From: Kofleriaceae bacterium | GTDB taxonomy: Bacteria > Myxococcota_A > Polyangia > Haliangiales > Haliangiaceae | NCBI GenBank assembly: GCA_046597055.1 | Contig: JBKJLC010000271.1 | Span: 1 to 42,202 of the forward strand | Length of the DNA stretch: 42,202 bases | Reading direction: 5' to 3' | Shown: one piece after another, positions 10,484 through 42,202 of the stretch | Numbering within the stretch: the stretch's first letter is position 1 | How the letters are laid out: each line of letters begins with the position of its first letter | The notes under the pieces: model-generated | What the model saw: only the letters and a program-made list of their open reading frames with translations | Told to the model about the DNA's origin: nothing | Databases searched by the model: none | Translations under genes and position numbers: made by a program

Positions 10484-10689
10484 CGGCGCGACGGTACCGC
10501 GGCGCGCCGCTGGCCAGCGCGCGCGGGCGACCGGCGTGGTCACGGCAAACAGCGGCACCTGCCCCTTCGGGTCGTTGGATCGCCGGGCCCGCGGGCCCAG
10601 AGTGGCGCGCGTGAAGGAATGCGCGCGCCAGCGTGGCTGTTGATTCAGCCGGTGAGACCTGCAACTCCGCCCTGCGCCGCGCGTCGTCC

Positions 10690-10705
10690 TGGCACGATGG
10701 CTGCT
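10690..10705 (+). promoter_or_regulatory. Putative sigma-54 (-24/-12) promoter of the export operon
   Basis: TGGCACG-ATGG-CTGCT has exact GG-N10-GC spacing, with one mismatch to the TGGCACG-N4-TTGCW consensus, and lies directly upstream of the ABC ATPase gene. Confidence 0.6.
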
Positions 10706-10719
10706 CCGTGATGGAACCC

Positions 10720-21909: not shown

Positions 21910-22120
21910 CGTCGCGCGATCGGGGGCCCCGCCGGCCACTGACAAGGGCTGTCACGCGCTACCAGGACCGCGCGAAAGCAACGATCGTGCGTGCCAGCGT
22001 GGGTGGCCCACACCGGCCCGCATGTCGGCGCGAGATGCTCGGAGCACAAAGGATTCGCGGCGACGAACACCCGCGGGAAAGATCTCGATTCGATTGCGTA
22101 GCTCTCTAGTATGCGAGGCC

Positions 22121-23098
22121 ATGCGTCAGCCATCTGTCTCGCTGTCCGCGGTCGTCGCCGCACTCGCGTTCACCGCCGCCACCGCCGTCACCGGCCTCGC
22201 CGGCTGCACCACCACGGTCGAGTCCACCGAGGCGCCCGAGGGCTTCTCGGCGCCCGACGAGGCGGTGTTCGCGCTGGCCGCGGCGACCACGCTCGGCAAT
22301 GGCCAGCCGGTCACCGGGCTGGGCGCGGCCCGCGGGGTCGAGCTGCACTACCAGCTCGCGGTCCCCGCCGGCGCCACCGCGCTGCGGGTCCAGATCGCGG
22401 GCGGCACCGGCGACGCCGACCTCTACGTCCGCTTCGGCGCCGCGCCGACCATCACCACCTACGACGCGCGGCCGTACCTGGACGGCAACGCCGAGACCAT
22501 CCTGCCCGCGCCGATCCGGACCGGCACGTACTTCGTCATGCTCCGCGCGTATCGCGCGTTCACCGGCGTGACCTTGACCGCGTCATTCCAGACGGCCACC
22601 GAGCCCCCGCCGCCCCCGCCGCCGCCGCCCCCGCCCGAGACGATCGACTGCACCGTGGCCGAGAGCTGGCCGGCCGCGTGGGTCGCGCTCGAGAATGACG
22701 GGCTCGCACGCATCAACGCGCATCGCGCCGCCGGCGCGACCTGCGGCGGCGTCGTGAAGCCGGCGGTCGGCCCGGTGGTGATGAACGCCGAGCTGCGCGA
22801 GGCCGCGCGCTGTCACAGCCAGGACATGGGCGTGAACGCGTACTTCAGTCACACCAGCCAGGACGGCCGCAGCCCGTGGACGCGCATCGCCGACGCCGGC
22901 TACACCGCATCGGCCACCGGCGAGAACATCGCCGCCGGCTACGGCACCGCCGCGCAGGTGGTGACCGGCTGGATGGCCTCCACCGGTCACTGCAACAACA
23001 TCATGAATGGCTCGTCGAACGAGACCGGCCTCGGCTACGCGCTCCAGGCCGGCTCACCCTACGGCAGCTACTGGACGCAGACCTTCGGCCGTCGCTGA
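22121..23098 (+). CDS. Lipoprotein with PPC (pre-peptidase C-terminal) domain, poly-Pro linker and CAP/SCP domain
   Basis: Lipobox LAGC; PPC GGTGDADLYV; P11 linker; CAP motifs INAHR, HSQDM..YFSH, GENIAAG, WMASTGHCNNI. Confidence 0.88.
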   Translation: MRQPSVSLSAVVAALAFTAATAVTGLAGCTTTVESTEAPEGFSAPDEAVFALAAATTLGNGQPVTGLGAARGVELHYQLAVPAGATALRVQIAGGTGDADLYVRFGAAPTITTYDARPYLDGNAETILPAPIRTGTYFVMLRAYRAFTGVTLTASFQTATEPPPPPPPPPPPETIDCTVAESWPAAWVALENDGLARINAHRAAGATCGGVVKPAVGPVVMNAELREAARCHSQDMGVNAYFSHTSQDGRSPWTRIADAGYTASATGENIAAGYGTAAQVVTGWMASTGHCNNIMNGSSNETGLGYALQAGSPYGSYWTQTFGRR

Positions 23099-23486: not shown

Positions 23487-26441
23487 ATGCTCACTCGTCT
23501 CGCGATACGCGTACGCTGGCTGGTTCTTCCCCTGCTGATGGTCCTGGGCTGCCTCGAGGGCAGCTCCAGCGCACCTGATCTCGCCACCGAGTCGAGCGAG
23601 CTGGTCGAGGGTGACTTCTGCTATCTGCCCTCGTATGGCCGCGGCGTGGGGTCGATTCCCACCGTGTGCCCGGCCGGCACTGAGTACGATGCAGGGCTCT
23701 GCTACGGCCTGTGCGATGCCGGCTTCGACGGCGTCGGCCCGGTGTGCTGGAGGTCCTGCCCCGCGGGCTACATCGATGACGGCGCGTTCTGCCGCAAGGA
23801 CGTCATCATCGTCGGCAAGCCCTCGTACGGCCGCGGCGCCGGCGGCGTGCCCGACGCGTGTCCGGCCGGCTCCCAGCGCGACGGCGCGCTGTGCTACCCG
23901 GACTGCGCCGGTGGCTACTACGGCGTCGGCCCGGTGTGCTGGCAGGCGTGCCCGGCCGGCTACACCGACGACGGCGCGTTCTGCCGCCGGGACGCCGTCA
24001 TCATCGGCTCCAACCGGGACAGCTGTCCCTGGTACGACACCTGCGGCGTGACCCTCGCCCGCGGCTGCTCGTCGTGCCCGGCCGGCTACATCAATGATGG
24101 CTGTACCTGCCGCCAGGACGCCCACATCTTCGCCAAGGCCACGTACGGGCGCGGCGGCGGCAGCCCGCTGACCTGTCGCGCCGGCCTGCAGAACGACGCC
24201 GGGCTCTGCTATCCGGCGTGCGCCGGCGGCTACGCCGGCGCGGGCCCGGTGTGCTGGGGCAGCTGCCCCGCCGGCTACGCCGACGACGGCGCAACCTGCC
24301 GGCTCGACGCGATCATCTTCGCCAAGGACACCCACGTGCGCGGCGTCGGCAGCCTGCTGTCGTGCAGCGACGGGCTCGAATCGGATGCCGGGCTCTGCTA
24401 CGAGACGTGCGCCGCCAGCTACGACGGCATCGGCCCGGTCTGCTGGGGTGTGTGCCCGGCCGGCATGGTCGCGTGCGGCGCCGGCTGCGCGGTGTCGTCG
24501 GCCGTCTGCGCCAACGTGATCGTCAGTCAGGTCATCGCCCCGTTCGACGTGCTGGCCAACCTGACGTTGATGGCGGTCAGCTTCGGCAGCTCGACCGTGT
24601 TCCAGTCGGGCGTGCGGGCGGCGCTGTCGGCGGCCCAGCAGGCGACGCTGCGCGAGACCCTGCGCGCCGCCCTGCGCCAGGCCGCGCAGGAGGCGGGCCA
24701 GGCCGCCACCGAGGAGTACATCGAGACCAACGCCGAGATCCTCGCCAACGCGGCCGAGGTCGGCGAGATGGACTGGACGCTGCTCGATCCGACCGGGATC
24801 GCGTCGTTCGTCCAGGCCTTCAATCACCCGACCTGCGACGCCCCGCCCCCGGGCGCCGGCAGCGGTGCCGCGCAGGACGCCGACCTCGACGGCGTCATCA
24901 ACGCGACCGACAACTGCCCGGCGCTGAACAACCCGGATCAGCGCGACACCGACGGCGACCGCCAGGGCGACGCCTGCGACGCCGACGACGACAACGACGG
25001 CGCGCTCGACCCGTCGGACAGCTGCCCCCGCCAGGCCAACACCGATCAGCGCGACGCCGACGCTGACGGCCAGGGCGATCCGTGCGATCCCGACGACGAC
25101 AACGACCTCGTGCTCGACGCCGCCGACAACTGCGGCTTCGTCGTCAACCCCGACCAGCGCGACGCGGATCGCGACGGCAGCGGCGACCCGTGCGACGGCG
25201 ACCTCGATGGTGACGGCGTGGCCAACCCCACCGACACCTGCCCGGCCAGCCCGGACCCGCTGCAGGAGGACGCCGACCGCGATGGCGCCGGTGACGCCTG
25301 CGACGACGACGACGACGGCGACGGCGCGCTCGACGCCGCCGACAACTGCCTCCTGATCGGCAACGCCGATCAGGCCGACGCCGATGGCGATCACCTCGGC
25401 AACGCCTGCGACGGGGACGACGACGGCGACGACGTGCGCGATGACGTCGACAGCTGCCCGCTGGTCGCCAACTTCGATCAGCTCGACCACGACGGCGACC
25501 GTGCCGGCGACGCCTGCGATCCCGATGACGACGACGACCGCGTCCTCGACCCGACCGACAACTGCGCGATGGTGGCCAACCCCGACCAGGGCGACCACGA
25601 CCGCGACGGCCTCGGCGACGAGTGCGACGCCGACGACGACAACGACGGGATCCTCGACGACGTCGACACCTGCATCGTGGCGGCGAACCCCGACCAGATC
25701 GACAACGACCGCGACGGCGCCGGCGATGCCTGTGATGGCGACGACGACAACGACGGCGTCGACGACGGCGCCGACAACTGCGCCTTCACCGCCAACCTCG
25801 ATCAGCTCGATCTCGACGCCGACGGCAGCGGCGACCGGTGTGATGCCGACGTCGATGGTGACACGGTCGGGAACGACGTCGACAACTGCCCGGTCCAGCC
25901 CAACCCGACCCAGGTCGACCTCGACCTGGACCGGCTGGGCGACTCGTGCGACGGCGACCTCGACGGCGACACCGTGCCGAACGCCGCCGACAGCTGCCCG
26001 TTCGTGCGCAACGTCGATCAGCGCGACCACGAGGGCGACGGCCTGGGTGACGTCTGCGACGACGATGACGACAACGACGGCGTGGTCGATGGCGGCGACA
26101 ACTGCCCGCGCGCCGCCAACCCGGCGCAGGGCGACTTCGACCGCGACGGCCTCGGCGACGTGTGCGACGGTGACCGCGACGCCGACGGGGTGGCCAACGA
26201 CGCCGACGTCTGCGAGCTCACCCCGATCGCGGCCGTGATCGACCCGGCCAGCGGCTGCTCGATCGCGCAGCTGGTGCCCTGCGCCGGCCCGCGCGGCGCG
26301 TCGACCTCGTGGCGCAACCACGGCGCCTACGTGTCGACCGTGACCCAGACCGCCGGTCAGTTCGTCGCGCTCGGGCTGATCTCGGCCGCCGACCGGGACC
26401 GCATCGTCTCGGCCGCCGGCCGCAGCAGCTGCGGCAAGTAG
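23487..26441 (+). CDS. Large lipoprotein: Cys-rich repeats + helical spacer + thrombospondin type-3 (Ca-binding) repeats
   Basis: GGAG upstream of the start; signal ending VLGC; four YGRG..C..G...DAGLCY..C..G(Y/F).G.GPVCW..CP repeats; 12 full 36-aa D.D.DG..D..DNC....N.DQ.D.D.DG.GD.CD units; C-terminal WRNHGAYVS domain. Confidence 0.88.
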   Translation: MLTRLAIRVRWLVLPLLMVLGCLEGSSSAPDLATESSELVEGDFCYLPSYGRGVGSIPTVCPAGTEYDAGLCYGLCDAGFDGVGPVCWRSCPAGYIDDGAFCRKDVIIVGKPSYGRGAGGVPDACPAGSQRDGALCYPDCAGGYYGVGPVCWQACPAGYTDDGAFCRRDAVIIGSNRDSCPWYDTCGVTLARGCSSCPAGYINDGCTCRQDAHIFAKATYGRGGGSPLTCRAGLQNDAGLCYPACAGGYAGAGPVCWGSCPAGYADDGATCRLDAIIFAKDTHVRGVGSLLSCSDGLESDAGLCYETCAASYDGIGPVCWGVCPAGMVACGAGCAVSSAVCANVIVSQVIAPFDVLANLTLMAVSFGSSTVFQSGVRAALSAAQQATLRETLRAALRQAAQEAGQAATEEYIETNAEILANAAEVGEMDWTLLDPTGIASFVQAFNHPTCDAPPPGAGSGAAQDADLDGVINATDNCPALNNPDQRDTDGDRQGDACDADDDNDGALDPSDSCPRQANTDQRDADADGQGDPCDPDDDNDLVLDAADNCGFVVNPDQRDADRDGSGDPCDGDLDGDGVANPTDTCPASPDPLQEDADRDGAGDACDDDDDGDGALDAADNCLLIGNADQADADGDHLGNACDGDDDGDDVRDDVDSCPLVANFDQLDHDGDRAGDACDPDDDDDRVLDPTDNCAMVANPDQGDHDRDGLGDECDADDDNDGILDDVDTCIVAANPDQIDNDRDGAGDACDGDDDNDGVDDGADNCAFTANLDQLDLDADGSGDRCDADVDGDTVGNDVDNCPVQPNPTQVDLDLDRLGDSCDGDLDGDTVPNAADSCPFVRNVDQRDHEGDGLGDVCDDDDDNDGVVDGGDNCPRAANPAQGDFDRDGLGDVCDGDRDADGVANDADVCELTPIAAVIDPASGCSIAQLVPCAGPRGASTSWRNHGAYVSTVTQTAGQFVALGLISAADRDRIVSAAGRSSCGK
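24876..26213 (+). repeat. 108-bp coding tandem repeat (TSP3-type), 12 full units plus a partial one
   Basis: Counted from the translation: 36-aa period with a conserved Cys pair and Asp-rich pattern. Confidence 0.85.
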
Positions 26442-31713: not shown

Positions 31714-33414
31714 TCAGAACGGCGCCGGCCGCTCGAGCTCGATCCGCGCGCCGGTCCGGGGATGCAGGAACGCCAGCGCCTCGGCGTGCAGCAACAGCCG
31801 GTCCGCGCCGTCGCCACCCGCGTCGCCGTCGGCGCGTCCGTACAGCCGGTCACCGACGATGGGCGTGCCGAGGCCCAGCGGGTGCGCGGCGTGGACCCGC
31901 AGCTGGTGGGTGCGGCCGGTGCGCGGGACCAGCGCGACCCGGGTCCGGTCCGCGGTCCGGCCGATCACGCGCCACTCGGTGCGGGCCGCCTTGCCGTGGA
32001 CCGGATCGTGGATCTGGCGCGGGCGATCGTCGAGATCGACCCGCAGCGCCAGCTCGATCACGCCGGCGTCTCCGGCCACCGGGCCGGCGAGCCACGCGGC
32101 GTAGCGCTTGTCGACCTCGCGGCGCGCGAACTGGCGCTGGAGCGCCGCGTGGGTGTCGGCATCCTTGGCCGCGAGCAGCAGCCCGGACGTGTCGAGATCG
32201 AGGCGGTGCACGATGAGCGGGCCCGTCGCGTCGGGGTAGCGCTCGCGCAGGCGCACCAGCACCGAGTCGCGCAGCTGGGCGTGGCGGCCCGGCACCGACA
32301 GCAGGCCGCATGGCTTGTCGACCACGACCAGCCAGGGATCCTCGAACACGACCCGGGGCTCGTCCGCGCCGATCGGCGCGGCCCCGAACACCGGGGCCGG
32401 CTCGGCGGCCAGGCCCTCGAGCATGAACGGCAGGACGCCGCCGCACTTGCCGCGGCACGCCGGGTAGAAGCTGCCGGCATGACGACCGCCGGTGACCGGC
32501 GGCGCGCCCCACCACAGCTCGGCCAGCGCGACCGGCCGCAGGCCGTGCCGGTAGGCCAGCGCGAGCAGCTTGGGCGCCGCGCAGTCGCCGGCGCCGCCGG
32601 GCGGCTCGTCGGGCGCGAACAGCGCGCGCAGCGACCGGCGCTCGCCGCGCGCGCTCGTGATGACGTAGGTGTCGTGGATGCGATGCAGGTAGTGGCGCGA
32701 GCGCTCGGCGCGGCGCTGGTCGAGCGCGGCCCGCTGCGCCTCGAGCGCCCGCAGCGGCGCCGCGATCGCCTCGCGCTCGGCGTGGTGGCCGGCCTCGAGC
32801 CGCCGCGCCTCGGCGGTGTCGGCCCGGCTCGCCTGGGCGAGCGCGTGCAGGTCGGCCGCATGCTCGGCGGCGACCGCGCCCAGCGCGGCGCGGGCCTGGT
32901 GACGGCGGCGCTTGTTGTCGTGGTGGCGCGCGCGTACTGCGGCTGCGGCCCGGTCGTGGCGCGTGGTCAGCGCCGCCAGCGCGTCGCGCAGCGCGACCGG
33001 CTCGGCGCCATCGAACAGCGCCTGGCGCTGGTCCTCGATCGCGCGCAGCTCGGCCTCGCCGGCCGGCCAGAACTCGTCGCGCGCGGGCTGCTCGAACAGC
33101 GGCGGCGCGAAGCCGGCAAGGTCCCAGCGGCCGGCCAGCATGCCCGAAAACGCGCGCAGGTAGCCGACCCGGCCGTCGGGCGCGGCGACCACGAGCACGC
33201 CGAACATCTTGCCGCCGCCGGGCTGGTCGAGGCCGCGCAGGTCGACGCCGCCGGCGAGGACGCCCCGGCGCAGCTCGGCGACCAGCGCCGCGGCCGCGCG
33301 CCGCGCGATCGGGACCGGCAGCCCGGGCGCGAACGGGCTCGGGAACCGGGCCGGCAGCTCGGCCGGTTCCGGCTGCGGATCGAAGTACGTGACGAACGCA
33401 GGCACGGCGCACAT
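31714..33414 (-). CDS. rluA: Long-form RluA-family pseudouridine synthase
   Basis: VDKPCGLLSVPG, catalytic VHRLDLDTSG, KRY, TGRTHQLRVH, IVGDRLYG, LHAE. N-terminal region has GKMFGVL, a coiled coil, GDCAAPKLL and YPACRGKC. Start approximate. Confidence 0.9.
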   Translation of the reverse strand: MCAVPAFVTYFDPQPEPAELPARFPSPFAPGLPVPIARRAAAALVAELRRGVLAGGVDLRGLDQPGGGKMFGVLVVAAPDGRVGYLRAFSGMLAGRWDLAGFAPPLFEQPARDEFWPAGEAELRAIEDQRQALFDGAEPVALRDALAALTTRHDRAAAAVRARHHDNKRRRHQARAALGAVAAEHAADLHALAQASRADTAEARRLEAGHHAEREAIAAPLRALEAQRAALDQRRAERSRHYLHRIHDTYVITSARGERRSLRALFAPDEPPGGAGDCAAPKLLALAYRHGLRPVALAELWWGAPPVTGGRHAGSFYPACRGKCGGVLPFMLEGLAAEPAPVFGAAPIGADEPRVVFEDPWLVVVDKPCGLLSVPGRHAQLRDSVLVRLRERYPDATGPLIVHRLDLDTSGLLLAAKDADTHAALQRQFARREVDKRYAAWLAGPVAGDAGVIELALRVDLDDRPRQIHDPVHGKAARTEWRVIGRTADRTRVALVPRTGRTHQLRVHAAHPLGLGTPIVGDRLYGRADGDAGGDGADRLLLHAEALAFLHPRTGARIELERPAPF

Positions 33415-33630
33415 CAACGCGGGGACGGCTCGGCGCGCATGGCAGCGCCGGAGCGTACACCGCACGCCGTCGTCGGGTGCCCACGGCCGGGACGCGGCGA
33501 CCGCTCGCCGCCGCCCGTGCCGTCGAGCGCGCCGCCGCCACGCCCGGCAGCAACTGGCAAACAACGGCGCTTCGAGCAACCCGCGCCATCGCGGCCGAGA
33601 CCCTGCGCACACTGGCCCCAGGAGATCGAC

Positions 33631-33915
33631 GTGAGTGAAATCAGTCTCGAAGTGTGGGACGCGACCGGGAACAAGCGTCTCGATGTCGCCGTCCCCGACG
33701 ATGTCGCGGTCGAGCGGATCTTGCTGGTGCTGGCCGACCGGCTGCATCTGCCCAAGCACGCGCCCGACGGCCAGCTGATGAGCTACAAGTTCCATCATCG
33801 GCGCCTCGGCGTGCAGCTGCTCGACGAGCAGACGCTCGCCGCGCAGCAGGTGGAGGCCGGCGACATCGTCCGGATCCAGCCCGAGATCACCGCCGGTGGC
33901 GACCTCCCCCGCTGA
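33631..33915 (+). CDS. Ubiquitin-like (beta-grasp) protein, 94 aa, C-terminus ...ITAGG-DLPR
   Basis: AGGAG at 33620-33624 then GTG 33631. Ub/YukD-like pattern ISLEV..RLDVAVPDDVAVERILLVL..YKF..LLDEQTLAAQQVEAGDIVRI with Gly89-Gly90. Appears only as the tail of the spurious 717-aa ORF in the track. Confidence 0.85.
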   Translation: MSEISLEVWDATGNKRLDVAVPDDVAVERILLVLADRLHLPKHAPDGQLMSYKFHHRRLGVQLLDEQTLAAQQVEAGDIVRIQPEITAGGDLPR

Positions 33916-35137
33916 GGTGCGGATCGCAGCGGCCGAGCTGGCCGACGCGGCGCACGACGATCGGTACCACCGCCAGTCCTTGATCGACTGGTGGGATCAG
34001 GCGCGCGTGGCCCGGACCCGGATCCTCGTGGTCGGCGCGGGCGCGCTCGGCAACGAGATCCTCAAGTCGCTCGCGCTGATCGGCAGCGGCTTCACCCTCG
34101 TCTACGATCCCGACCGGATCGAGCGATCGAACCTGTCGCGGAGCGTCCTGTTCCGGCAGGCCGACGAGGCCGACGGCAAGGCGGCCGTGGCCGTGCGGCA
34201 GATGCGCGAGATCAATCCGGGCGTCCACGCCCACGCGATCGCGGGCAACGTGCTCGACCAGGCCGGGCTCGGGGTCTTTCACTGGGCCGACGTCGTGATC
34301 GGCGCGGTCGACAACCGGGAAGCCCGCGTCTTCATCAACGGCGCGTGCGCGCGCACCGGCAAGACCTGGGTCGATGGCGCCATCGAGGGCCTGGCCGGCG
34401 TCGTCCGCGTCTTCGCGCCGGGTCAGGGCGCTTGTTACGAGTGCACGATGAACTCGACCGATCGCAAGCTGCTGGCGACCCGTCGCTCGTGTGCGCTGCT
34501 CGCCCGCGACGCCGTCGCGCGCGGCCACGTGCCGACCTCCGCGATCGCGGCGTCGGTCATCGGCGCCATGGAGGTCCAGGAGGCGATCAAGCTCGTCCAC
34601 GGGCAGCCGACGCTGACCGGCCACGGGCTCCACCTCGACGGGCTCCATGGCGAGATCAGCCGCGTGCGCTACCAGCGCCGCCCGGACTGCTCGGGCCATG
34701 ACGCGCTCGGCCCGATCGTGCCGCTCGGCCTCGGGGTCGACGACGTGACGCTCGGCGCCCTGCTCGAGCGCGCCGAGACCGCGCTGGGCGCCGGGGCCGC
34801 CCTCGATCTCTCGCGCGACGTGATCGTCAGCCTCACCTGCCCGACCTGCAGCACCCGGACGCCCGGGCGCACGGTCCTCGGCGCGGTGCGCGAGTCGCAG
34901 GCCGCGTGTCCGCGCTGTGCCACCCATCGCGTGGTCGAGATCACGTCGTCGATCAGCCGCGACAGCGACCTCGACCTGGGCCAGACGCCGGGCGAGCTCG
35001 GCCTGCCGCCGTTCGACATCATCGTGGCCCGTCAGGGCCTGGACCGGCAGGAGGCCTGGCTGTTCGACGGCGACGCCGCGCGGGTCCTGGGGTCATTGGC
35101 GGGGTCCCGGACGGGCCCCCAAGGGAATCCGACATGA
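33896..35137 (+). CDS. E1-like (ThiF/MoeB/UBA) activating enzyme with C-terminal Zn-ribbon region
   Basis: GAGALG, DPDRIERSNLSR, KA, AVDNREAR, CYEC, candidate catalytic Cys199 (RRSC), CSGH, extra CPTC...CPRC. No rhodanese domain. Alternative start GTG 33917. Confidence 0.92.
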   Translation: MATSPAEVRIAAAELADAAHDDRYHRQSLIDWWDQARVARTRILVVGAGALGNEILKSLALIGSGFTLVYDPDRIERSNLSRSVLFRQADEADGKAAVAVRQMREINPGVHAHAIAGNVLDQAGLGVFHWADVVIGAVDNREARVFINGACARTGKTWVDGAIEGLAGVVRVFAPGQGACYECTMNSTDRKLLATRRSCALLARDAVARGHVPTSAIAASVIGAMEVQEAIKLVHGQPTLTGHGLHLDGLHGEISRVRYQRRPDCSGHDALGPIVPLGLGVDDVTLGALLERAETALGAGAALDLSRDVIVSLTCPTCSTRTPGRTVLGAVRESQAACPRCATHRVVEITSSISRDSDLDLGQTPGELGLPPFDIIVARQGLDRQEAWLFDGDAARVLGSLAGSRTGPQGNPT

Positions 35138-36645
35138 GCTCACTCGACATCCGCGCGATCGACCAGACCCACCTGCGCCAGCAGCCGTGCCCGGCGACCA
35201 AGCACGAGCTGGCGGTGTTCCTCGCCGAGGAAGCCTTCGACCGCGCGGTCGCCCGCGGCGACAGCGACACCACCCGCGAGATCGGCGGCGTCCTCGTCGG
35301 CGAGCTGCTGCGCGATGCCGGCGGCCCGTATCTGCGCATCGACACCACGATCGATGCGCTGCACGCCGAGGAGAAGGGTGCCGAGCTGACGTTCACCCAC
35401 GCCACGTGGGAGCACATCCACAAGGAGATGGACACCCGCCATCAGGGCAAGAAGGTGGTGGGCTGGTACCACACCCACCCTGGCTTCGGCGTCTTCCTCT
35501 CCGACCGCGATCAGTTCATTCACAAGAGCTTCTTCAACCTCCCCTTCCAGGTCGCGTTCGTCTACGACCCGAAGAGCAAGGAGCACGGGCTGTTCACGTG
35601 GCGGGACAACGAGGTGTGGCGCATGCGCCGCTACGCGATCGGCGACCGCGAGCACACCTGGGACGGCAATCGCGCCAGCGCCCGTCCGAGCGATGCGACC
35701 GAGAAGCCGGACGACGCCCGCCGCGACGCCCGCGACACCGCCCGGGATCGTGGCGAAGATCCGGGCCTGAATGGCTCGTTCGCGACGGTGGTCATGGTGG
35801 CGACCGTGCTGGTGCTGCTCGCGGGCTTCGCTGGCCACTGGTTCGGCTCGTCGGCCGCGAACGCCACGATCGGGCAGGCCCAGATCGAGATCGCCAAGGC
35901 CCGCAGCGACGGCGCCCAGCTCGCGGTCGCGTCCCTCGAGCACGACCTGGTCGGGCTGTTGCGCGCGACGCTCGGCGACCAGGCGGTCCACCAGCCGGTC
36001 GCCCAGGCAATCGCCGGGGTGGATCGGGCGCTGGCGAGCCTCGCCCCTGCGGTCCCCGGCGGGGCCACCGCCGGCGCCGCCGCGCCGAGCCCGGACCCGC
36101 GCCAGGCCGACGCGATCAGCCAGCTCAGGACCGCCCGCGAGGGCCTCCTGCGGTTGAGCGTGGATCGCAGCTCGGCCGAGGCGCTGCTCGCGGCGATCGA
36201 GCGAGCCACCCGCCAGGGTGGCGACGCCCGGGCCGATCTCGCCCGCGACGTGGCGGCCCAACGGTCGGGCATCGGTGGGCTGTACGCCGAGCTGGCGACC
36301 GAGGTCGTGAAGGCCGGCGATGTGCGTCGCGCCCAGCGCTTGCTCACGACGGCCGCGCTGCTCGATCCCGGCAATCGCCCGCGCTACGAGAAGCAGCTGC
36401 AGTCGTTCGCCCGGGGCGCCACGCTGCCGCGGGCCCCCGCGATCAAGGAAAGCGCGCCGGCCGCCACTTTCCCGGCAACCGCCCCCGCGACCGGGCCGAC
36501 AGCTGCGCCCGTAACCCCACCGACCGCCGCGCCCGCAACCCCACCGACCGCCCCGCCCGCACCGCCCGCGACGTTGCCGGCAACCGCCCCCGCGGTCGGG
36601 CCGACCGCCGGGCCGACCGCGAACGCCGACGGAGGAACCCGATGA
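35134..36645 (+). CDS. Membrane-anchored JAB/MPN+ (JAMM) metallo-isopeptidase
   Basis: REIGGVLVG and GWYHTHPGFGVFLSDRD give an intact E...HxH-x7-S-x2-D motif; one TM, a helical region with a TPR-like motif and a Pro/Ala/Thr tail. ATG 35134 has an ATGA overlap. Confidence 0.92.
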   Translation: MSSLDIRAIDQTHLRQQPCPATKHELAVFLAEEAFDRAVARGDSDTTREIGGVLVGELLRDAGGPYLRIDTTIDALHAEEKGAELTFTHATWEHIHKEMDTRHQGKKVVGWYHTHPGFGVFLSDRDQFIHKSFFNLPFQVAFVYDPKSKEHGLFTWRDNEVWRMRRYAIGDREHTWDGNRASARPSDATEKPDDARRDARDTARDRGEDPGLNGSFATVVMVATVLVLLAGFAGHWFGSSAANATIGQAQIEIAKARSDGAQLAVASLEHDLVGLLRATLGDQAVHQPVAQAIAGVDRALASLAPAVPGGATAGAAAPSPDPRQADAISQLRTAREGLLRLSVDRSSAEALLAAIERATRQGGDARADLARDVAAQRSGIGGLYAELATEVVKAGDVRRAQRLLTTAALLDPGNRPRYEKQLQSFARGATLPRAPAIKESAPAATFPATAPATGPTAAPVTPPTAAPATPPTAPPAPPATLPATAPAVGPTAGPTANADGGTR

Positions 36646-38003
36646 GCGACAACGAGAAGCTTCGAATCGACCGACAGGAGCTGTTCGACCCGGGGGTCGA
36701 CCAGGCCCTCGCGCGCGAACGCGCTGGTCGCGAACGCGTCGTCGCGGATGCGCCGCCGGTCTCGGCCCTGCGCCGGCTGCTGCTCAACAGCCTGTTTCAC
36801 ATGCCGCTGGCGGCGGTGCTCGGCGCGCTGGTCTGCTGGCTGCTGCTCGAGCCCAAGATCACCGACATGCCGGTGGTCGGCGGCGAGGTGATCCTGGTCA
36901 ACGCCGAGCCGTTCGACGCGGACGACGGCATCCTCGCCATCACGATCGGCGACCACGCCGTCTACGTCGACCCCGAGCGGGTGGTCCTCGAGCCCGGCGC
37001 CAACGGCGAGCCCGCGCTCGCCAGCGTCGACGACATCCAGGTCGGCGACCGGATCGAGGCGACCGGGCTCGCCGCCGGTAGCAACCTGGCCGCCGCCGCG
37101 CTCCGCCCGACCAGCCGGACCGACTCCTACGGGGAGCTGGCCGAGCCGCAGTGGCCGATGTTCGTGCTGTTCCCGCTGACGGCGGCGCTGATCGCGTTCG
37201 GCCTGCTGTTCGCCGAGGGCCTCACGACCCGCAACTGGATCCGGATGATCGAGCGGTCGCTGCTCGGCAGCTTCCTGGCGGCGCTGTTCGCGTGCCTCGC
37301 GTTCGTGCCCGCTGGCCTGTTCATGACGATCTCCGACCGCGTGTTCGCGTCGGAGGCGGCGCGGCATCCGGAGCTGCTCGTCGTGACGGTCGATGACGTC
37401 GGCGGCTTCACCTTCCTCGTGGTCGTCGTGTGTCGCAGCGCGGCGTGGGCATGCATCGGCGCGGCGACCGGGCTCGGCATGAACCTGGTCCGGTCGACGC
37501 GGGCCCAGCTCCGGAACTCGACGATCGGCGGCGCGCTCGGCGGCGCGATCGGCGGCATGTTCTTCGATCCGATCGCGCGCTTCCTGCAGACGACGATGTT
37601 CGCCGATGCCGCGGTGTCACGGGCGGTCGGCCTGGTCGCGGTCGGGCTGTCGGTCGGCATCTTCGTGGCCCTGGTCGAGCGGCTGGCGCGGGACGCCTGG
37701 CTGCGCGTGCGGACCGGCCCGCTCGCCGGCAAGTCGTTCATCCTCTACAAGACGCCCTCGGTCATCGGCAACGCGCCGTCGTCCGACGTCTATCTGTACA
37801 AGGACGCGGAGATCGATCCGGCCCACGCGTCGATCCACCGGGTCGGCACGATGTACGAGATCGAAGACCTGGGCAGTCGCATGGGCACCCAGGTCGCCGG
37901 CACCAAGGTCCGGCGCCGGCGGCTGACCTCCGGCGATCAGATTGTCATTGGCAGCACGATCCTCGATTTCGAGGAACGGCAACAACGCACGCAGCTCGCG
38001 TGA
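36642..38003 (+). CDS. Polytopic membrane protein with C-terminal FHA-fold domain
   Basis: GGAGG at 36631 and ATGA overlap; about 6 hydrophobic segments; C-terminal WLRVRTGPLAGKSFIL..IG...DV.L....I...HASI....IEDLGS..GT.V.......L.SGD.I.IG is the FHA pattern. Confidence 0.85.
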   Translation: MSDNEKLRIDRQELFDPGVDQALARERAGRERVVADAPPVSALRRLLLNSLFHMPLAAVLGALVCWLLLEPKITDMPVVGGEVILVNAEPFDADDGILAITIGDHAVYVDPERVVLEPGANGEPALASVDDIQVGDRIEATGLAAGSNLAAAALRPTSRTDSYGELAEPQWPMFVLFPLTAALIAFGLLFAEGLTTRNWIRMIERSLLGSFLAALFACLAFVPAGLFMTISDRVFASEAARHPELLVVTVDDVGGFTFLVVVVCRSAAWACIGAATGLGMNLVRSTRAQLRNSTIGGALGGAIGGMFFDPIARFLQTTMFADAAVSRAVGLVAVGLSVGIFVALVERLARDAWLRVRTGPLAGKSFILYKTPSVIGNAPSSDVYLYKDAEIDPAHASIHRVGTMYEIEDLGSRMGTQVAGTKVRRRRLTSGDQIVIGSTILDFEERQQRTQLA

Positions 38004-38004
38004 G

Positions 38005-38604
38005 ATGGAACGAACGACGATGGAAGCTGTGCGAATTCTCAAGGTCAATCTCAAGCTCGCCGGCAAGCCGTGCAAGTGGTGCCAGGTCCCGCTCGAGCTC
38101 GCCGAGGAAGCGGCGGTCTGCACCGCCTGCGAGGGCGAGCATCACCGCCGCTGCTGGGAGCCCAGCGGCGGCTGTGCCACCGTCGAGTGCGTGAACGCGC
38201 CGCTGCGGCGGCTCGACGCGCCCGGCCACCGGGCGATGCCGCTGCCGGCCGCGGCCGTGCTCGCCCCTGGCACCATGCACTGTCCGCGCTGCCGCGACAT
38301 CATCATGATGGGCAGTCCGCTGTGCCCCAGCTGCAACGCGGTGACGAGCCCCGACGGCCTCTACCATGGCCCGAAGACGAACGCGCCCGGCGCGGTGTCG
38401 TCGCTCGTCTACGGCATCATCGGCGTCTTCATCTGCGGCATCATCGCGGGTCCGATCGCGATCTCGAAGTCGAGTCAGGCGAAGCGCGAGATCGCCAGCA
38501 ACCCGACCTACGGCGGCGGCGGGCTCGCCAGCGCCGGCATGGTGCTGGGCATCGTCGACCTCGTGCTGTGGGCCGTCTTCCTGATCGCCAAGATCGGCGG
38601 ATAG
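38005..38604 (+). CDS. RING-like (C4HC3, Prok-RING type) + Zn ribbon + DUF4190-like 2-TM protein; candidate E3
   Basis: CKWC-x12-CTAC-x4-H-x2-CW-x5-C-x4-C; CPRC...CPSC; AVSSLVYGIIG...AKREI...GGGLASAGMVLG. Start is ATG 38005 or 38020. Confidence 0.8.
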   Translation: MERTTMEAVRILKVNLKLAGKPCKWCQVPLELAEEAAVCTACEGEHHRRCWEPSGGCATVECVNAPLRRLDAPGHRAMPLPAAAVLAPGTMHCPRCRDIIMMGSPLCPSCNAVTSPDGLYHGPKTNAPGAVSSLVYGIIGVFICGIIAGPIAISKSSQAKREIASNPTYGGGGLASAGMVLGIVDLVLWAVFLIAKIGG

Positions 38605-38608
38605 GCCG

Positions 38609-39025
38609 ATGGTCGGGGCGGGCCCGCGCGGCCGGATGCTCGATCTCGGCTGGGCGGCCCTGGTGGCCGCCCAGCTGGGCGCGGCGGCCGTGCTGGACCG
38701 CCGCGGCGACCAGCTCGCGTGGCCGGGCGGGTCACCGCTCGGCGGGGCCTGCCTGTCGCGCGCGCTGTTCGACGTCAGCTGTCCGTTCTGCGGCATGACC
38801 CGCAGCTTCGTCGCGCTGGCCGACGGCGAGCTGGGCGCCGCGGTCGGCTTCCACCCGGCGGGGCCGATCCTGTTCGCCGCGATGGTGGCGTTCCTGGTGG
38901 CGGTGGTCGTGGTCTGGGCACGGCGGGCGCCGCCGCTGTTCGCGCGCCGCCGGTTCCTGGTCGGGTTCGAGGCGGTCGTGCTCGTATGCATGGCGGTCGG
39001 TGTCTTCAAGATGGTGAGGAGCTAG
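38609..39025 (+). CDS. DUF2752-like membrane protein
   Basis: C-x9-CPFCGMTRS..AL..G....A..FHP signature flanked by three hydrophobic segments. Confidence 0.8.
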   Translation: MVGAGPRGRMLDLGWAALVAAQLGAAAVLDRRGDQLAWPGGSPLGGACLSRALFDVSCPFCGMTRSFVALADGELGAAVGFHPAGPILFAAMVAFLVAVVVVWARRAPPLFARRRFLVGFEAVVLVCMAVGVFKMVRS

Positions 39026-39027
39026 CG

Positions 39028-39567
39028 ATGACCCGTTGCGCGATCTGCTACACGGTCCTGAGCCAGGAGGAGCCGCGCACGGCGTGCCCCGAATGCCGGA
39101 CCGACTATCACAAGACCTGCTGGGACGAGATCGGCGGCTGCGGCACCTACGGGTGCCAGCGCGCCGCGGTCGCCCAGAAGCCGCCGGTGCCGGTGCTGGT
39201 CGGTGCCGGCTGGGGTGACACCAAGGAGTGTCCGGCGTGCACCTGCGAGATCAGCTCGAGCCTGCTCGTGTGCGCGTGCGGCGCCCGGTTCCCGTGGGCC
39301 GATGCGATGACGCGCGCGGAGTATCAGCGCTGGGGCGCGAGCCAGCAGGCGATCAAGACCTCACGCACGACCTTGATCTGCCTGTTCCTGCTGTCGCTGG
39401 TCGGGTTCACCGCACCGCTCGCGGGGCCGCTCGCGGGCGTCTACGCGTTCCGCAAGCGTGACCAGCTGGCCGGCACCGGCGGGACCTACCTGGCGATGGG
39501 CTATGGCAGCGCCGCGATCGGCGGCCTCTACGCGCTCCTGTTCGCGATCATCGCGCTGGGACACTGA
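39028..39567 (+). CDS. RING-like (C4HC3) + Zn ribbon + 2-TM protein; second candidate E3
   Basis: GAGGAG upstream of ATG 39028; CAIC-x12-CPEC-x4-H-x2-CW-x5-C-x4-C; CPAC...CAC; two C-terminal TM helices. Confidence 0.82.
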   Translation: MTRCAICYTVLSQEEPRTACPECRTDYHKTCWDEIGGCGTYGCQRAAVAQKPPVPVLVGAGWGDTKECPACTCEISSSLLVCACGARFPWADAMTRAEYQRWGASQQAIKTSRTTLICLFLLSLVGFTAPLAGPLAGVYAFRKRDQLAGTGGTYLAMGYGSAAIGGLYALLFAIIALGH

Positions 39568-39569
39568 CG

Positions 39570-40892
39570 ATGAGCGGGCCCGGCCACGTTGCACCGCCGG
39601 GTCCGCGCAAGCGGCGCTGGTTCCGTCGGGGGCCAGCGACCATCGCGACCCAGATGACGACGATCTGTCCGTGCTGCCAGGTGGCAGGACTGACCCGCCT
39701 CGCCCCCGGCCAGCCGTGCGGCGCGTGTCGGTCGCAGCAAGCCTGGACCGAGCTGGGCGCCGCGGGCCTCGTCGTCGATCACGACGCGATCGAGCAGGCC
39801 GTGCAGGCCCGGCGCGGTGAGGCAGCGGGCGCACCGGCGTGGCGGCGGCTCCTGGCGTGGGCACCGCCCGCGCTGACCCTGGGCGTCGCCGCGGTGGCAG
39901 CCTGGGCGACCGTCGCGCTGCTGTCGGCACGCCCGATCGGGCCGCTCGACGGGTTGATCGCGGACCTGCGCGGCGCGAGCCGGTGCGCCGCCCTGGTCGG
40001 GCTGCTCGCCCTGGTCGCCGGCGTGATCGCCACGGTCCGGCTGCGGCGGCAGCGGCATTTTCGCCGCCTGCCGTTCGTGATCGCGCACGCGGTGGCGGTC
40101 GTGATCGGAACCTCGGCGATGGCGATCGGCGGGCTGCACTGGCTCGCGCTGCGCAGCGCCGTCTCGGCCGCGTACACCTCGATGCCGGCGCGTACGTCGC
40201 TGGGCGTGGCGTCGCAGCTGGAGCGCATCATGGACGCGACCGTGGTGGTGCTGGCGCCCGACCGCGACGGCGATGGCCGCAACCCGGCCATGGGCACCGG
40301 CGCGATCGTCGCCGCCGACGACCACCGCGCCTGGATCGTCACGTGCAGCCATGTCGCGATGCCGTACGCCGCGGTCGGCGGGTATCGTCATGCGCGCGCG
40401 GCGCACCCGGTGTGGGTGCAGCTCAGCGACGGCCGCGGCGGTCGAGCCCGGGTGCGCTGGGCCGCGCCGCCGCCACTCGACCTGGTCGTGGTCGAGCTGC
40501 CGATCGAGCACCCACCGGCGCCGGTGGCGATCAGCCTCGACGCCGGGCTGCCGGTGTCGGCGGGCGTCACCTTCGTGCCGAATCCGTATCGCGACGGCTG
40601 GAAGGTGATCCACGGCGAGCTGCTGCGCCGCGTGCCTCACCGCACCCCGGCCGGCACCTACGACCTGCTGTACACGGATCTCCCCGTGATCCCCGGCGAC
40701 AGTGGCAGCGGGTTGTTCGACGCCCGCGGCCAGCTGATCGGGCTCAACACCTGGACCCGGCTCCGCCCCGGGGGTGCGTCCGAAGGCATCAGCCTGCCGT
40801 CCGAGACCATGCGCGCGGTGGTCGACGCGATCCAGCGCGGCACCCTCGACCAGCTCGATGACGCGCTTTCTTCACCGACGACGAGAGAGTGA
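39570..40892 (+). CDS. Membrane-anchored trypsin-like serine protease with N-terminal Zn ribbon
   Basis: CPCC...CGAC, three TM-like segments, GTGAIV, TCSHV (His), DLVVV (Asp), PGDSGSGLF (Ser), LIGLNT. No PDZ domain. The start may be ~28 codons downstream. Confidence 0.88.
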   Translation: MSGPGHVAPPGPRKRRWFRRGPATIATQMTTICPCCQVAGLTRLAPGQPCGACRSQQAWTELGAAGLVVDHDAIEQAVQARRGEAAGAPAWRRLLAWAPPALTLGVAAVAAWATVALLSARPIGPLDGLIADLRGASRCAALVGLLALVAGVIATVRLRRQRHFRRLPFVIAHAVAVVIGTSAMAIGGLHWLALRSAVSAAYTSMPARTSLGVASQLERIMDATVVVLAPDRDGDGRNPAMGTGAIVAADDHRAWIVTCSHVAMPYAAVGGYRHARAAHPVWVQLSDGRGGRARVRWAAPPPLDLVVVELPIEHPPAPVAISLDAGLPVSAGVTFVPNPYRDGWKVIHGELLRRVPHRTPAGTYDLLYTDLPVIPGDSGSGLFDARGQLIGLNTWTRLRPGGASEGISLPSETMRAVVDAIQRGTLDQLDDALSSPTTRE

Positions 40893-40895
40893 CCC

Positions 40896-41600
40896 ATGGA
40901 CAACGTACGGCTTCGCCGCTTGAAGGCCGACCACGAGGCGCTGCGCCGGCTCGCGCACCTCCATCCCAAGATCGAGATCGAAGGGGTGTTCGGCAACCCG
41001 CCCGAGCGCTACCGGCTGGTGCTCAAGGTCAAGTCCCTGCGCGAGCGCGGCGAGACCATCGAGACCGTCGACGAGCATCGCCTCGAGGTCACGATGCCGC
41101 GCGGCTATCCCCGGGACGCCCCGCTGTTCCGGATGCTCACGCCGGTGTTCCATCCGAACATCGCGCCGCACGCGGTCTGCATCGGCGATGACTGGACCGC
41201 GGGCGAGCCGCTCGATCTGCTGATCCAGCGGGTCGGCGAGATCCTCGCCTACCAGAGCTACAACACGAAGAGCCCGCTCAACGGCCGCGCCGCCCAGTGG
41301 GTCGACCAGCACCGCGATCAGGTCCCGATCGATCGCGAGGAGTTCTTCGTCGACCTGGCCGGGGCCGAGGCCCGCTCCGCCGACCCGGTCGACCCGGTTG
41401 GCTCGAGCGAGGCCGCGGTGGCGTGCGCGAACTGCGGTGCCGCGGTCGCCGGCAGCCCCGACATGACGGTGTGCCCCGCGTCGCACCCGCTGTGTGGAGA
41501 CTGCGCGGTCACGTGCAGCAGCTGCTCGACGGTGCTGTGCCTGGTCTGCGGCAGCTATCCGTGCGCGACCTGCGGTCCATCGGCCTCGGCGACCGGCTGA
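40896..41600 (+). CDS. E2 ubiquitin-conjugating (UBC-fold) enzyme fused to a C-terminal Cys/His cluster
   Basis: RLRRLKADHE helix 1, MPRGYPRDAP, TPVFHPNI, catalytic Cys95 (AVCIGDDW), SPLNGRAA. The C-terminal 50 aa contain 11 Cys and 1 His. Confidence 0.92.
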   Translation: MDNVRLRRLKADHEALRRLAHLHPKIEIEGVFGNPPERYRLVLKVKSLRERGETIETVDEHRLEVTMPRGYPRDAPLFRMLTPVFHPNIAPHAVCIGDDWTAGEPLDLLIQRVGEILAYQSYNTKSPLNGRAAQWVDQHRDQVPIDREEFFVDLAGAEARSADPVDPVGSSEAAVACANCGAAVAGSPDMTVCPASHPLCGDCAVTCSSCSTVLCLVCGSYPCATCGPSASATG

Positions 41601-41664
41601 CGAGCGCGCCGCGGCCACGGCCGTCGGTGGTGACGGTCGCGCCGACGCACATCGGCCGGCAGAC

Positions 41665-42177
41665 GGCAGACCTCGCGCTTGATCGTCTCGCCATGCGATC
41701 GAATGGACACATCCTCCCGGTGGCCGTGAGCCGGCGCCGCAGGCGCCGTGTCGAAGGGCCGACCGGTCACGCGCAGCCGCACGCGCAGCCGGACGCGCCG
41801 TCGGCGCGGCCAAGGTCCCGTCGCTGGCTCGATCCGGGGTCCCCGGGTGCATCGCTGGGCGGTGCCGTTGCCTCGACTCGCCGACGCCCTCACCACCCGG
41901 CCGTGGAACTTACGAGCGCTCTGGGACCTCGCCCCCGCCTCGGCTCGTCCTCCGTGCGGGTCACGAACACCGGGCACGTGCCCGGCGCCCCCTCGAGACT
42001 GATCACTTCCCTCCATGTGATCGAGCGCGCTCCCCGTGCCCGGTGGCCCGGAGCTGGTGCCGCAGGCGCCGTGTCGAAGGGCAGACCTCGGGATTGATCA
42101 CAAGTCTTCATGTGATCGGAAGCGCTCACCTTTCCCGGTGGCCCTGAGCCGGCGCCGCAGGCGCCGTGTCGAAGGGC
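41665..42177. repeat. Three copies of a ~95-bp palindromic REP/MITE-like repeat
   Basis: A 44-bp core CCCGGTGGCCnnGAGCyGGyGCCGCAGGCGCCGTGTCGAAGGGC occurs at 41716-41759, 42039-42082 and 42134-42177. Each is preceded by a GATCRY...GYGATC inverted repeat. Confidence 0.85.
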
Positions 42178-42202
42178 AGAGCGCCAAAGTGCCGCACGTG
42201 AT

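Follow-up and report, generated by a model that had tools for sequence, protein, structure and literature searches.

A nine-gene, membrane-anchored cassette with the parts of an E1-E2-RING ubiquitin-like conjugation cascade in a Kofleriaceae bacterium

The DNA analyzed in this work, referred to as the window, is a stretch of 42,202 nucleotides from a Kofleriaceae bacterium (assembly GCA_046597055.1, contig JBKJLC010000271.1, positions 1-42,202 of the forward strand), whose GTDB lineage is Bacteria; Myxococcota_A; Polyangia; Haliangiales; Haliangiaceae. Nine genes lie on its + strand at positions 33,631-41,600 in one shared direction, as called from start-codon context and Pfam scans, and they encode, in order, a ubiquitin-like protein (Ubl), an E1 adenylating enzyme, a JAB/JAMM metallopeptidase, a polytopic FHA membrane protein, a RING protein (RING1), a small DUF2752 membrane protein, a second RING protein (RING2), a trypsin/HtrA-like serine protease, and an E2. 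Curated Pfam cut-offs were used, and all nine products have matches above them. Neighboring genes either share 4 or 20 nt or are separated by gaps of 1-4 nt, and a hydropathy scan found hydrophobic segments in six of the nine products (one in the JAB protein, about six in the FHA protein, two in RING1, three in the DUF2752 protein, two in RING2, and three in the protease). The initial annotation of this DNA had described nine genes in one orientation, each overlapping the next or separated from it by no more than 4 nt, and transmembrane segments in six products, and both descriptions hold. Consensus scans of positions 33,000-42,202 found no sigma-70-like promoter on either strand and, on the + strand, nothing that resembles a terminator, which leaves the cassette undivided. 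The G+C content of the window is about 73%, which gives rise to many spurious long open reading frames (ORFs).

The first gene (33,631-33,915, +) has the sequence AGGAG 7 nt upstream of its GTG start and encodes a YukD-like beta-grasp protein of 94 residues (Pfam YukD, 38.9 bits against a cut-off of 27, 1.5e-9), for which no sequence match to a solved structure was found at E ≤ 1. The eleven Ubl orthologues have a common end, ...QPEITAG, which corresponds to Ala88-Gly89. Three of the eleven stop exactly at AG, while the remaining eight run on with variable, unrelated tails, and the tail of the window protein after Gly89 consists of the five residues GDLPR. Since the conserved end is AG and the tails beyond it vary, the alignment indicates that the reactive end is Ala88-Gly89 and that the second glycine in the window belongs to a removable tail. 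The Ubl had been described as containing a GG pair, which is indeed present in the window protein, but the end conserved among the orthologues is AG. The presence of tails in eight orthologues and their absence from three fits maturation by a peptidase.

The E1 (33,896-35,137, +, with an alternative start at 33,917; 413 residues; Pfam ThiF, 162.1 bits, 1.7e-47) carries a GxGxxG motif at residues 47-52, a CxxC pair at 180/183, and a candidate catalytic cysteine, Cys199, all of which are invariant in 11 orthologues. Two more CxxC pairs (315/318 and 338/341) are located in the C-terminal ~140 residues. By sequence, its nearest solved relatives are the adenylation domains of eukaryotic Uba1 (1.2e-22), together with UBA7 and UBA6 at 1.2e-22 or weaker. 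Because E1 falls in the ThiF family, and because its best NCBIfam rows are ThiF and MoeB, one might suppose that the Ubl and the E1 are a sulfur-carrier pair of the ThiS/MoaD-ThiF/MoeB type that serves the synthesis of a cofactor or metabolite, with the other genes as unrelated neighbors. The NCBIfam scores are, however, far under the cut-offs (123.1 versus 275.25 for ThiF and 120 versus 449 for MoeB), no rhodanese domain and no biosynthetic genes were found in the cassette by Pfam, and E2, RING, and JAB genes are co-conserved with the Ubl-E1 pair in each locus that has room for them. A sulfur-carrier function is therefore extremely improbable.

The last gene (40,896-41,600, +) encodes an E2 of the UBC fold (234 residues; Pfam UQ_con, 31.0 bits against a cut-off of 27) in which His86-Pro87-Asn88 and Cys95 are invariant among 25 sequences. 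Its nearest solved relatives are eukaryotic, with UBE2C the closest (9.3e-8) and UBE2T, UBE2K, UBE2A/B, and UBC13 weaker; a fold search with a low-confidence model (mean predicted local distance difference test score, pLDDT, of 65.3) also matches UbcH5c/Ubc13. The C-terminal module of the protein (residues 177-226) holds 11 cysteines and one histidine, twelve ligands in all, and within the same low-confidence model it forms four short hairpins with pLDDT above 80 at residues 190-230. This tail scores 22.3 bits against Pfam Siva, under the cut-off of 26.2, and is weakly like tandem GATA-type zinc fingers (E ~1e-4). Three RING-like fingers had been proposed for the operon; two of them, in RING1 and RING2, pass the Prok-RING_1 cut-off, whereas the third, the E2 tail, is unproven as a RING by these comparisons and is not counted as one here. 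The Cys-rich module is present as one copy in the window E2 and is doubled in many E2 homologs (columns 200-383 of their alignment), two of which (P0040 and P0045) have a long Ala/Pro-rich linker between the copies.

The JAB protein (35,134-36,645, +; 503 residues; Pfam JAB, 38.7 bits, 9.9e-10; Prok-JAB, 8.7e-7) consists of a cytoplasmic JAB domain at residues ~1-190, one transmembrane segment at 216-234, and beyond it an Ala/Pro-rich tail with little conservation, probably located in the periplasm. Glu49, His113, His115, Ser123, and Asp126 are invariant in 10 orthologues. The nearest solved relatives are Rpn11 (6.5e-8) and the 'N11-like protein' of entry 6fjv (1.6e-7), which we take to be the Rpn11-like enzyme of the archaeon Caldiarchaeum subterraneum. 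In terms of catalytic residues, then, the initial annotation of an E1 with a candidate catalytic cysteine, an E2 with HPN and cysteine, and an intact JAMM peptidase is supported by invariance across the orthologues in all three cases.

The two RING proteins are similar in layout. RING1 (38,005-38,604, +, with an alternative start at 38,020; 199 residues) matches Prok-RING_1 at 34.0 bits (cut-off 29.1) and DUF4190 at 46.4 bits, and comprises an N-terminal C4HC3 RING (C23...C62), a CxxC...CxxC zinc ribbon at residues 93-110, and the two transmembrane segments of the DUF4190 hairpin; its Cys/His pattern is kept in 13 sequences. RING2 (39,028-39,567, +; 179 residues; Prok-RING_1, 31.1 bits, cut-off 29.1) comprises an N-terminal C4HC3 RING (C4...C43), a conserved linker, a zinc ribbon (C68/C71...C82/C84), and a two-transmembrane hairpin, and its ligands are invariant in 15-16 sequences. 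Both follow the spacing C-x2-C-x10-12-C-x2-C-x4-H-x2-C-x6-C-x4-C, and in a scan of the genome they were the sole Prok-RING_1 matches (37.4 and 35.4 bits). The gene between them (38,609-39,025, +) encodes the DUF2752 protein of 138 residues (55.8 bits, 4.8e-15), which has three hydrophobic segments and a CxxC motif.

A structure-based test of the pairing between E2 and RING2 gave a predicted contact score of 0.56, compared with 0.00 for the best control. Of 157 solved complexes 116 attained this mark, as did 2 of 215 mismatched pairs; among those that attained it, only 18 of the solved complexes, but both of the mismatched pairs, scored 0.60 or less. The E2-RING2 runs agreed in at least 76% of contacts, and the partner had a pLDDT of at least 75.

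The FHA membrane protein (36,642-38,003, +; 453 residues; Pfam FHA, 46.5 bits, 5e-12) was modeled with AlphaFold2 from a 47-sequence alignment (pLDDT 92.7, predicted template modeling score 0.87). The model has a cytoplasmic N-terminus, a first membrane helix at residues 50-72, an outward beta domain of ~80 residues at 78-156, five further membrane helices, and the FHA domain at 352-445. From the count of membrane helices, the model places the FHA domain in the cytoplasm. The protein had been annotated as envelope-facing; according to the model this is not so for its FHA domain, and residues 78-156 alone face outward. In fold searches (Foldseek and VIA) with the whole 453-residue model, which barely probed the membrane bundle and residues 78-156, all matches fell on the FHA domain. 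The FHA part superimposes on GarA with a Z score of 18.9 and a root-mean-square deviation of 1.2 over 97 aligned residues. The GarA residues that we take to contact the phosphopeptide, an arginine (Gly-Arg), a serine (Ser-x-x-His), and an asparagine (Asn-Gly), align with Asn377, Asp392, and Met414, and across 47 members of the FHA family the position of the GarA arginine is occupied by serine in 42, alanine in three, asparagine in two, and arginine in none. Because the canonical Arg/Ser/Asn set is absent, the domain probably binds its partner without phosphothreonine.

The serine protease (39,570-40,892, +; 440 residues; Pfam Trypsin_2, 58.4 bits, 1.7e-15) begins with a cytoplasmic CxCC...CxxC zinc ribbon, followed by three transmembrane segments and a protease domain at residues ~240-400, in which His261, Asp304, and Ser378 are invariant among 16 orthologues. 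A positively charged loop follows the second transmembrane segment. Since three transmembrane segments precede the protease domain and the loop after the second is positively charged, the domain is probably periplasmic, in agreement with the envelope-facing protease of the initial annotation.

The arrangement of the cassette is conserved. A database search with the E2 returned 1565 relatives at E ≤ 0.001; among the 119 homologs listed, with the window's own protein excluded, identity is 59-79%, and those that are named come from Kofleriaceae, Myxococcales, or Deltaproteobacteria metagenome-assembled genomes (MAGs). Sixteen genome loci were recovered, of which ten span the whole region and six are partial. 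The order Ubl-E1-JAB-FHA-RING1-RING2-protease-E2 is kept in 10/10 of the full-length loci, and in the six partial loci it is the same as far as each reaches. The DUF2752 gene is present in five of the ten full-length loci and, among 22 metagenome loci with at least 5 kb of downstream sequence, in 14, where it sometimes follows the E2 gene; its presence in the cassette is optional. The gene-neighborhood search proposed in the initial annotation thus returned a constant order with a variable DUF2752 gene, and the same order in all ten full-length genome loci and in dozens of metagenome loci makes the operon more than a chance arrangement.

The metagenome loci were collected through the FHA protein. 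A search of representative sequences with this protein gave 7013 matches at E ≤ 0.001, 1248 at 1e-10, and 173 at 1e-30; 46 diverse members were aligned, and the resulting profile was used to scan metagenome contigs. The best 80 of 409 relatives (30-79% identity) were taken as loci and scanned with hidden Markov models built from close orthologues of the window proteins, and the counts describe FHA-bearing loci only. Ubl, E1, and JAB genes were present in 33/33 loci with at least 3.3 kb upstream, and at least one RING gene and the E2 gene in 22/22 loci with at least 5 kb downstream, 18 of which also have the protease. The initial annotation had made its reading depend on whether the membrane genes are co-conserved with the Ubl/E1/E2/JAB core, and this is what was found; because of this co-conservation, the membrane genes are core parts of the cassette and not passengers. 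The 18 complete metagenome loci range in G+C content from 0.38 to 0.74. In terms of RING genes, the 30 metagenome loci in which the E2 was seen have one (5 loci), two (17 loci), three (5 loci), or four (3 loci). In distant loci, extra genes lie between the FHA gene and the RING genes (L052:11500-14407, L062:4915-5811, L085:4245-5331, and L086:10365-10718), and these encode small membrane proteins with N-terminal double zinc ribbons and Yip1, RDD, TM2, or DUF2085 domains, so that the array of cytoplasmic zinc-finger membrane proteins differs among loci.

A second phylum, that of a Planctomycetaceae MAG locus (L016), also has the FHA protein family, in 23 of the 301 genomes sampled. Among 12 loci from this phylum, a JAB gene lies upstream in 11 and a RING gene downstream in nine; of the three without a RING gene, two have no room and one has none in 1.2 kb. 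The nearest FHA-protein clusters in a protein atlas, which are leads only, are from Acidobacteriota, Verrucomicrobiota, and Planctomycetota. In one Planctomycetota-rich cluster of FHA membrane proteins, 11% of the members also carry UQ_con, which suggests that E2-FHA fusions exist in some lineages.

Another explanation is that the Ubl acts mainly inside its own complex, where it would be attached or bound to the FHA scaffold, the RING proteins, and the protease N-terminus and would control the assembly or activity of a trans-envelope signaling or proteolytic device. Such a role would be loosely like that of free YukD in controlling the assembly of the type VIIb secretion system. The Ubl is YukD-like, and a YukD-type Ubl is reported, in the abstract of PMC12637312, to control assembly of that system. 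All of the membrane partners except the FHA and JAB proteins carry a cytoplasmic zinc ribbon, a possible shared docking handle, and the FHA domain looks phospho-independent. However, an E1, an HPN-Cys E2, RING proteins, and an isopeptidase would be needless for a non-covalent or internal role, yet they are strictly conserved, and the cassette contains no secretion-system genes. We regard this explanation as improbable.

The cassette is sparsely distributed. The source genome has one copy: E2 was matched once and Prok-RING_1 twice, and every match lies in the operon. The E2 is encoded in 19/147 genomes of the order (11/79 of those of high quality), in 18/137 genomes of the family, and in 4/16 other genomes of the same genus, in which one genome that is 99% complete has no match. 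The E2 proteins of three genomes of the same genus are 70-71% identical to that of the window, and those of another genus of the family are 75-80% identical, which hints at horizontal transfer or old paralogy. In an even sample of the phylum, an E2 match was found in 7/401 genomes, and six of these are distant relatives with 28-36% identity.

These distant same-phylum loci (L024-L028) hold other Ubl/E1/E2/JAB cores. No RING, FHA, or protease relative was found in them by phmmer with the window proteins, and no RING or FHA family was found by Pfam among the ORFs submitted, for which the ORF picks were rough. They were considered as relatives of the cassette and rejected, as they represent a different variety and are not counted as evidence on it. 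In L024, at 6902-12095 on the - strand, the core consists of an E1 (541 residues), an E2, a YbjN-like protein, a YukD-like Ubl, and a JAB protein (579 residues), followed by ClpS, and a Trypsin_2 gene lies ~1.7 kb beyond the E1. This core points tentatively to Clp-dependent proteolysis as a process connected with this Ubl family.

The flanks of the window cassette are ordinary and encode, among others, dimethylglycine-dehydrogenase-like, adenosine-deaminase-like, and pseudouridine-synthase proteins, none of which recurs beside the cassette in other loci. The flanks of the other loci are mostly unrelated (45 singleton ORFs), and sharing is limited to closely related loci. The sole apparent flank match was rejected as an artifact of an ORF called too long, within which the Ubl gene is read on the opposite strand. 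In this ORF (31,714-33,798, -; 694 residues) the pseudouridine synthase domain covers residues 490-639 only; the N-terminal extension overlaps the beginning of the Ubl gene in antisense and accounts for false flank matches, and the true start is probably internal.

The patchy distribution and the differing flanks, which give the cassette a mobile look, bring forward a conflict or anti-phage role, in which the membrane RING proteins would tag either phage proteins, incoming or in assembly, or membrane proteins of the host cell so that infection is aborted, and the JAB protein would reset the system. This could parallel the tagging of a virion protein by Bil. Consistent with such a role, the numbers of RING and zinc-ribbon membrane genes vary, and defense or selfish-element roles for operons of this kind are predicted in passages of PMC10557695 and PMC3417536. 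A PADLOC scan, which the initial annotation had suggested, recognized two of the proteins, and those weakly: E1 matches the generic 'E1-E2' model at 45.9 bits over its adenylation domain only, and the best JAB match is 22.8 bits, both weak matches being to models of the type used for the cyclic-oligonucleotide-based anti-phage signaling system (CBASS), while the other seven proteins, including the E2 and the Ubl, match no family. On the other hand, no known defense genes were found among the scanned ORFs of the window, and none of nine pattern matches on viral contigs (0/9) encodes an E2 relative. The E2 identity among listed homologs is also unusually high for defense genes, and the gene order is fixed across the whole range of G+C contents given above. 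In our estimate an anti-phage role is rather unlikely, though it comes close behind the turnover role preferred below.

The explanation that we prefer is that the cassette is a self-contained Ubl-conjugation system at the inner membrane that serves the turnover of membrane or envelope proteins, and we assign it a probability of roughly 45%. Its two parts differ in strength. That the cassette conjugates its Ubl to proteins is, from the sequences, likely, and true conjugation is favored because the parts of the cascade are present and conserved and their catalytic residues are invariant. That its role is the regulated turnover or remodeling of membrane or envelope proteins is held tentatively. 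We lean toward turnover because the sequences are highly conserved, the architecture is fixed, and the neighborhood is ordinary; the points counted for it over defense are the E2 identities, the metabolic flanks, the few PADLOC matches, the lack of relatives on the viral contigs, and the ClpS gene beside the distant core.

Gene content, intact motifs, membrane anchoring, and co-conservation are observed directly, and from them we infer a scheme in which each biochemical step, the sidedness of the protease and of the JAB tail, and the substrates are proposed. The JAB protein would trim the variable tail of the Ubl and expose Ala88-Gly89, and the E1 would adenylate Gly89 and hold the Ubl as a thioester on Cys199. 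The Ubl would then be handed to Cys95 of the canonical, eukaryote-like E2, and the two membrane-anchored C4HC3 RING proteins would recruit the E2~Ubl and steer the Ubl to lysine residues of target proteins on the cytoplasmic side of the membrane; the JAB protein could later take it off these targets. The polytopic FHA protein would serve as a scaffold, with its FHA domain holding a partner without phosphothreonine and its outward beta domain sensing the periplasm. The membrane-tethered serine protease would be the periplasmic arm, with the JAB tail on the same side, and the RING proteins and the protease may use their zinc ribbons as docking handles.

Several observations weigh against this scheme. 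At the level of structure, the best match of RING2 to a solved structure has an E value of 0.06, which is not significant, and the E2 model has a pLDDT below 50 at residues 70-102, around the active site. The predicted E2-RING2 contact lends weak support, and since structures of E2-RING complexes are already known, the pass may be due to likeness to those complexes alone. At the level of function, YukD, the nearest Pfam family of the Ubl, is described in a passage of PMC1779556 as not conjugated, and no biochemistry of this class in bacteria was found in the searchable literature. No reader or degradation machine for the tag is present among the cassette products, and for this reason the turnover role is a guess. 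At the level of distribution, the cassette is patchy in the order, among its high-quality genomes, and in the genus; the flanks are unrelated, with their 45 singletons; and the number of RING genes (1-4) and the extra zinc-ribbon membrane proteins vary. An antiviral role for such operons is, in addition, predicted by authors in the field in a passage of PMC10557695.

Other features of the window were recorded as well. Three copies of a dispersed intergenic repeat of ~95 nt lie 3′ of the E2 gene (41,665-41,765, 41,991-42,085, and 42,086-42,180). It has 56 matches across the contigs of the source genome, many of them at contig ends, and it probably breaks the assembly; the 56 matches tie the contig to this genome and speak against contamination. 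Farther upstream, positions 23,487-26,441 (+) encode a 984-residue protein in which 12 stretches match the thrombospondin type 3 repeat (Pfam TSP_3, 3.7e-100), and the gene for a secreted protein with a CAP/PPC domain (22,022-23,098) immediately precedes it. A carboxylic-acid-reductase-like protein of 1346 residues (AMP-binding, PP-binding, and NAD_binding_4) is encoded at 6,518-10,558 (-), beside ABC-transporter and HlyD-type genes.

In summary, the cassette is real and complete, a typical representative of a class known from computational prediction, and its carrier is an uncultured soil myxobacterium. What is new in this work is the AG end of the Ubl, the apparently phospho-independent, cytoplasmic FHA domain on a modeled polytopic scaffold, and the quantified co-conservation of the membrane genes. 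Complete cascades of E1, E2, RING, and deubiquitinase are a hallmark of eukaryotes. In this class the E1, E2, and JAB proteins are closest in sequence to eukaryotic E1, E2, and Rpn11, the system is membrane-anchored, and its gene order is strikingly constant across very different genomes. Its substrates would reveal what ubiquitin-like tagging does at a bacterial membrane and would bear on the origin of membrane-bound ubiquitin ligases.

Among known systems, the cassette is most directly comparable with the predicted Prok-RING_1 class (Pfam PF14446), in which a YukD-like Ubl, a ThiF-type E1, an HPN-Cys E2, a JAB protein, and Prok-RING_1 occur in one operon. Beyond these core parts, the window cassette has the polytopic FHA protein, the tethered protease, the DUF2752 protein, and the DUF4190 domain of RING1, of which the FHA protein and the protease are conserved and DUF2752 is optional. 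The abstract of the 2011 study by Burroughs, Iyer, and Aravind (Mol Biosyst) is said to propose that YukD-like Ubls are conjugated by RING-bearing operon systems. In passages of PMC7159879, PMC10557695, and PMC5654768, that study is credited with predicting prokaryotic RING E3s in Ubl/E1/E2/JAB operons; the first two cite it for whole Ubl systems of prokaryotes that include RING-type E3s, and the statement of the initial annotation that RING-bearing operons had been predicted computationally agrees with the first two of these sources. As far as its relevant passages go, a 2006 survey by the same group (PMC1779556) contains no FHA term and treats RINGs as apparently eukaryotic. No experimental study of a bacterial RING-bearing Ubl operon was found in the literature searched, outside of which lie most subscription journals.

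The Bil, Bub, and type II CBASS Cap2/Cap3 systems are similar to the cassette in the activation of a Ubl or substrate C-terminus by an E1, transfer to an E2, reversal by a JAB-type or other peptidase, and their sparse operons (passages of PMC11601603 and PMC10557695). They differ from it in that they are described as anti-phage and have no RING E3, whereas the window has two RING proteins; compared with CBASS, the E1 and E2 are separate genes in the window, and no CD-NTase domain was found among the nine products by Pfam. No Bil, Bub, or Cap2 names were noticed among the listed solved relatives of the E1 (45) or the E2 (best 60 of 83), which instead bear eukaryotic Uba/UBE2 or ThiF, MoeB, and MccB names; in addition, two rows that match the E2 tail are GATA factors. 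Passages of 2023-2024 preprints describe three bacterial systems as characterized, CBASS Cap2, Bil, and Bub, and none of them has a RING. YukD of type VIIb secretion belongs to the same beta-grasp Pfam family as the Ubl and is likewise tied to membrane proteins. It is reported in PMC1779556, in the passage on this protein, as unconjugated and without E1/E2 partners, in contrast to the window Ubl, which has a conserved terminal glycine and a full conjugation set.

A second point of comparison is the archaeal system of Caldiarchaeum subterraneum, from which the window differs in its YukD-like modifier with an AG end and no solved relative at E ≤ 1, and in its 6/9 membrane products with an added FHA scaffold and protease. 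The Caldiarchaeum system consists of soluble proteins, and its modifier is a true ubiquitin with a GG end. Its operon (ubiquitin, E1, E2, a small RING, and Rpn11) has been reconstituted in vitro, according to passages of PMC5654768 and PMC6043591, and it is like the cassette in combining an E1-E2-RING cascade with an Rpn11-like JAB that also processes the modifier precursor, the window JAB protein being a match to Rpn11. The initial annotation had held that characterized systems are soluble and have no RING E3, which stands for CBASS Cap2, Bil, and Bub as regards the RING but not for the archaeal E1, E2, and RING, which have been reconstituted (PMC5654768, in the passages cited).

The window RING proteins resemble eukaryotic MARCH and Doa10 in having the C4HC3 order on the cytoplasmic side of a membrane anchor and in their pairing with a canonical UBC-type E2, and they may, by analogy, work like RING-CH ligases. 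The likeness is a reading of ligand order and not a family test: no RINGv row was found in Pfam at E ≤ 1 for the window RINGs, and Prok-RING_1 and a sub-threshold zf-RING_2 were listed. In contrast to MARCH, Doa10, and endoplasmic-reticulum-associated degradation (ERAD), the anchors in the window are DUF4190-like hairpins, and the cassette has no AAA+ extraction machine or proteasome. A bolder proposal, and a decidedly doubtful one, is that the cassette is the bacterial counterpart of the membrane RING-CH systems, a trans-envelope device built on a phospho-independent FHA scaffold that marks membrane proteins for removal, in which the beta domain of the scaffold and the tethered protease would read the periplasm while Ubl marks would be written on the cytoplasmic face. 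If this proposal is true, the cassette would provide a free-living model, and perhaps an evolutionary antecedent, for membrane ubiquitination of the ERAD/MARCH type.

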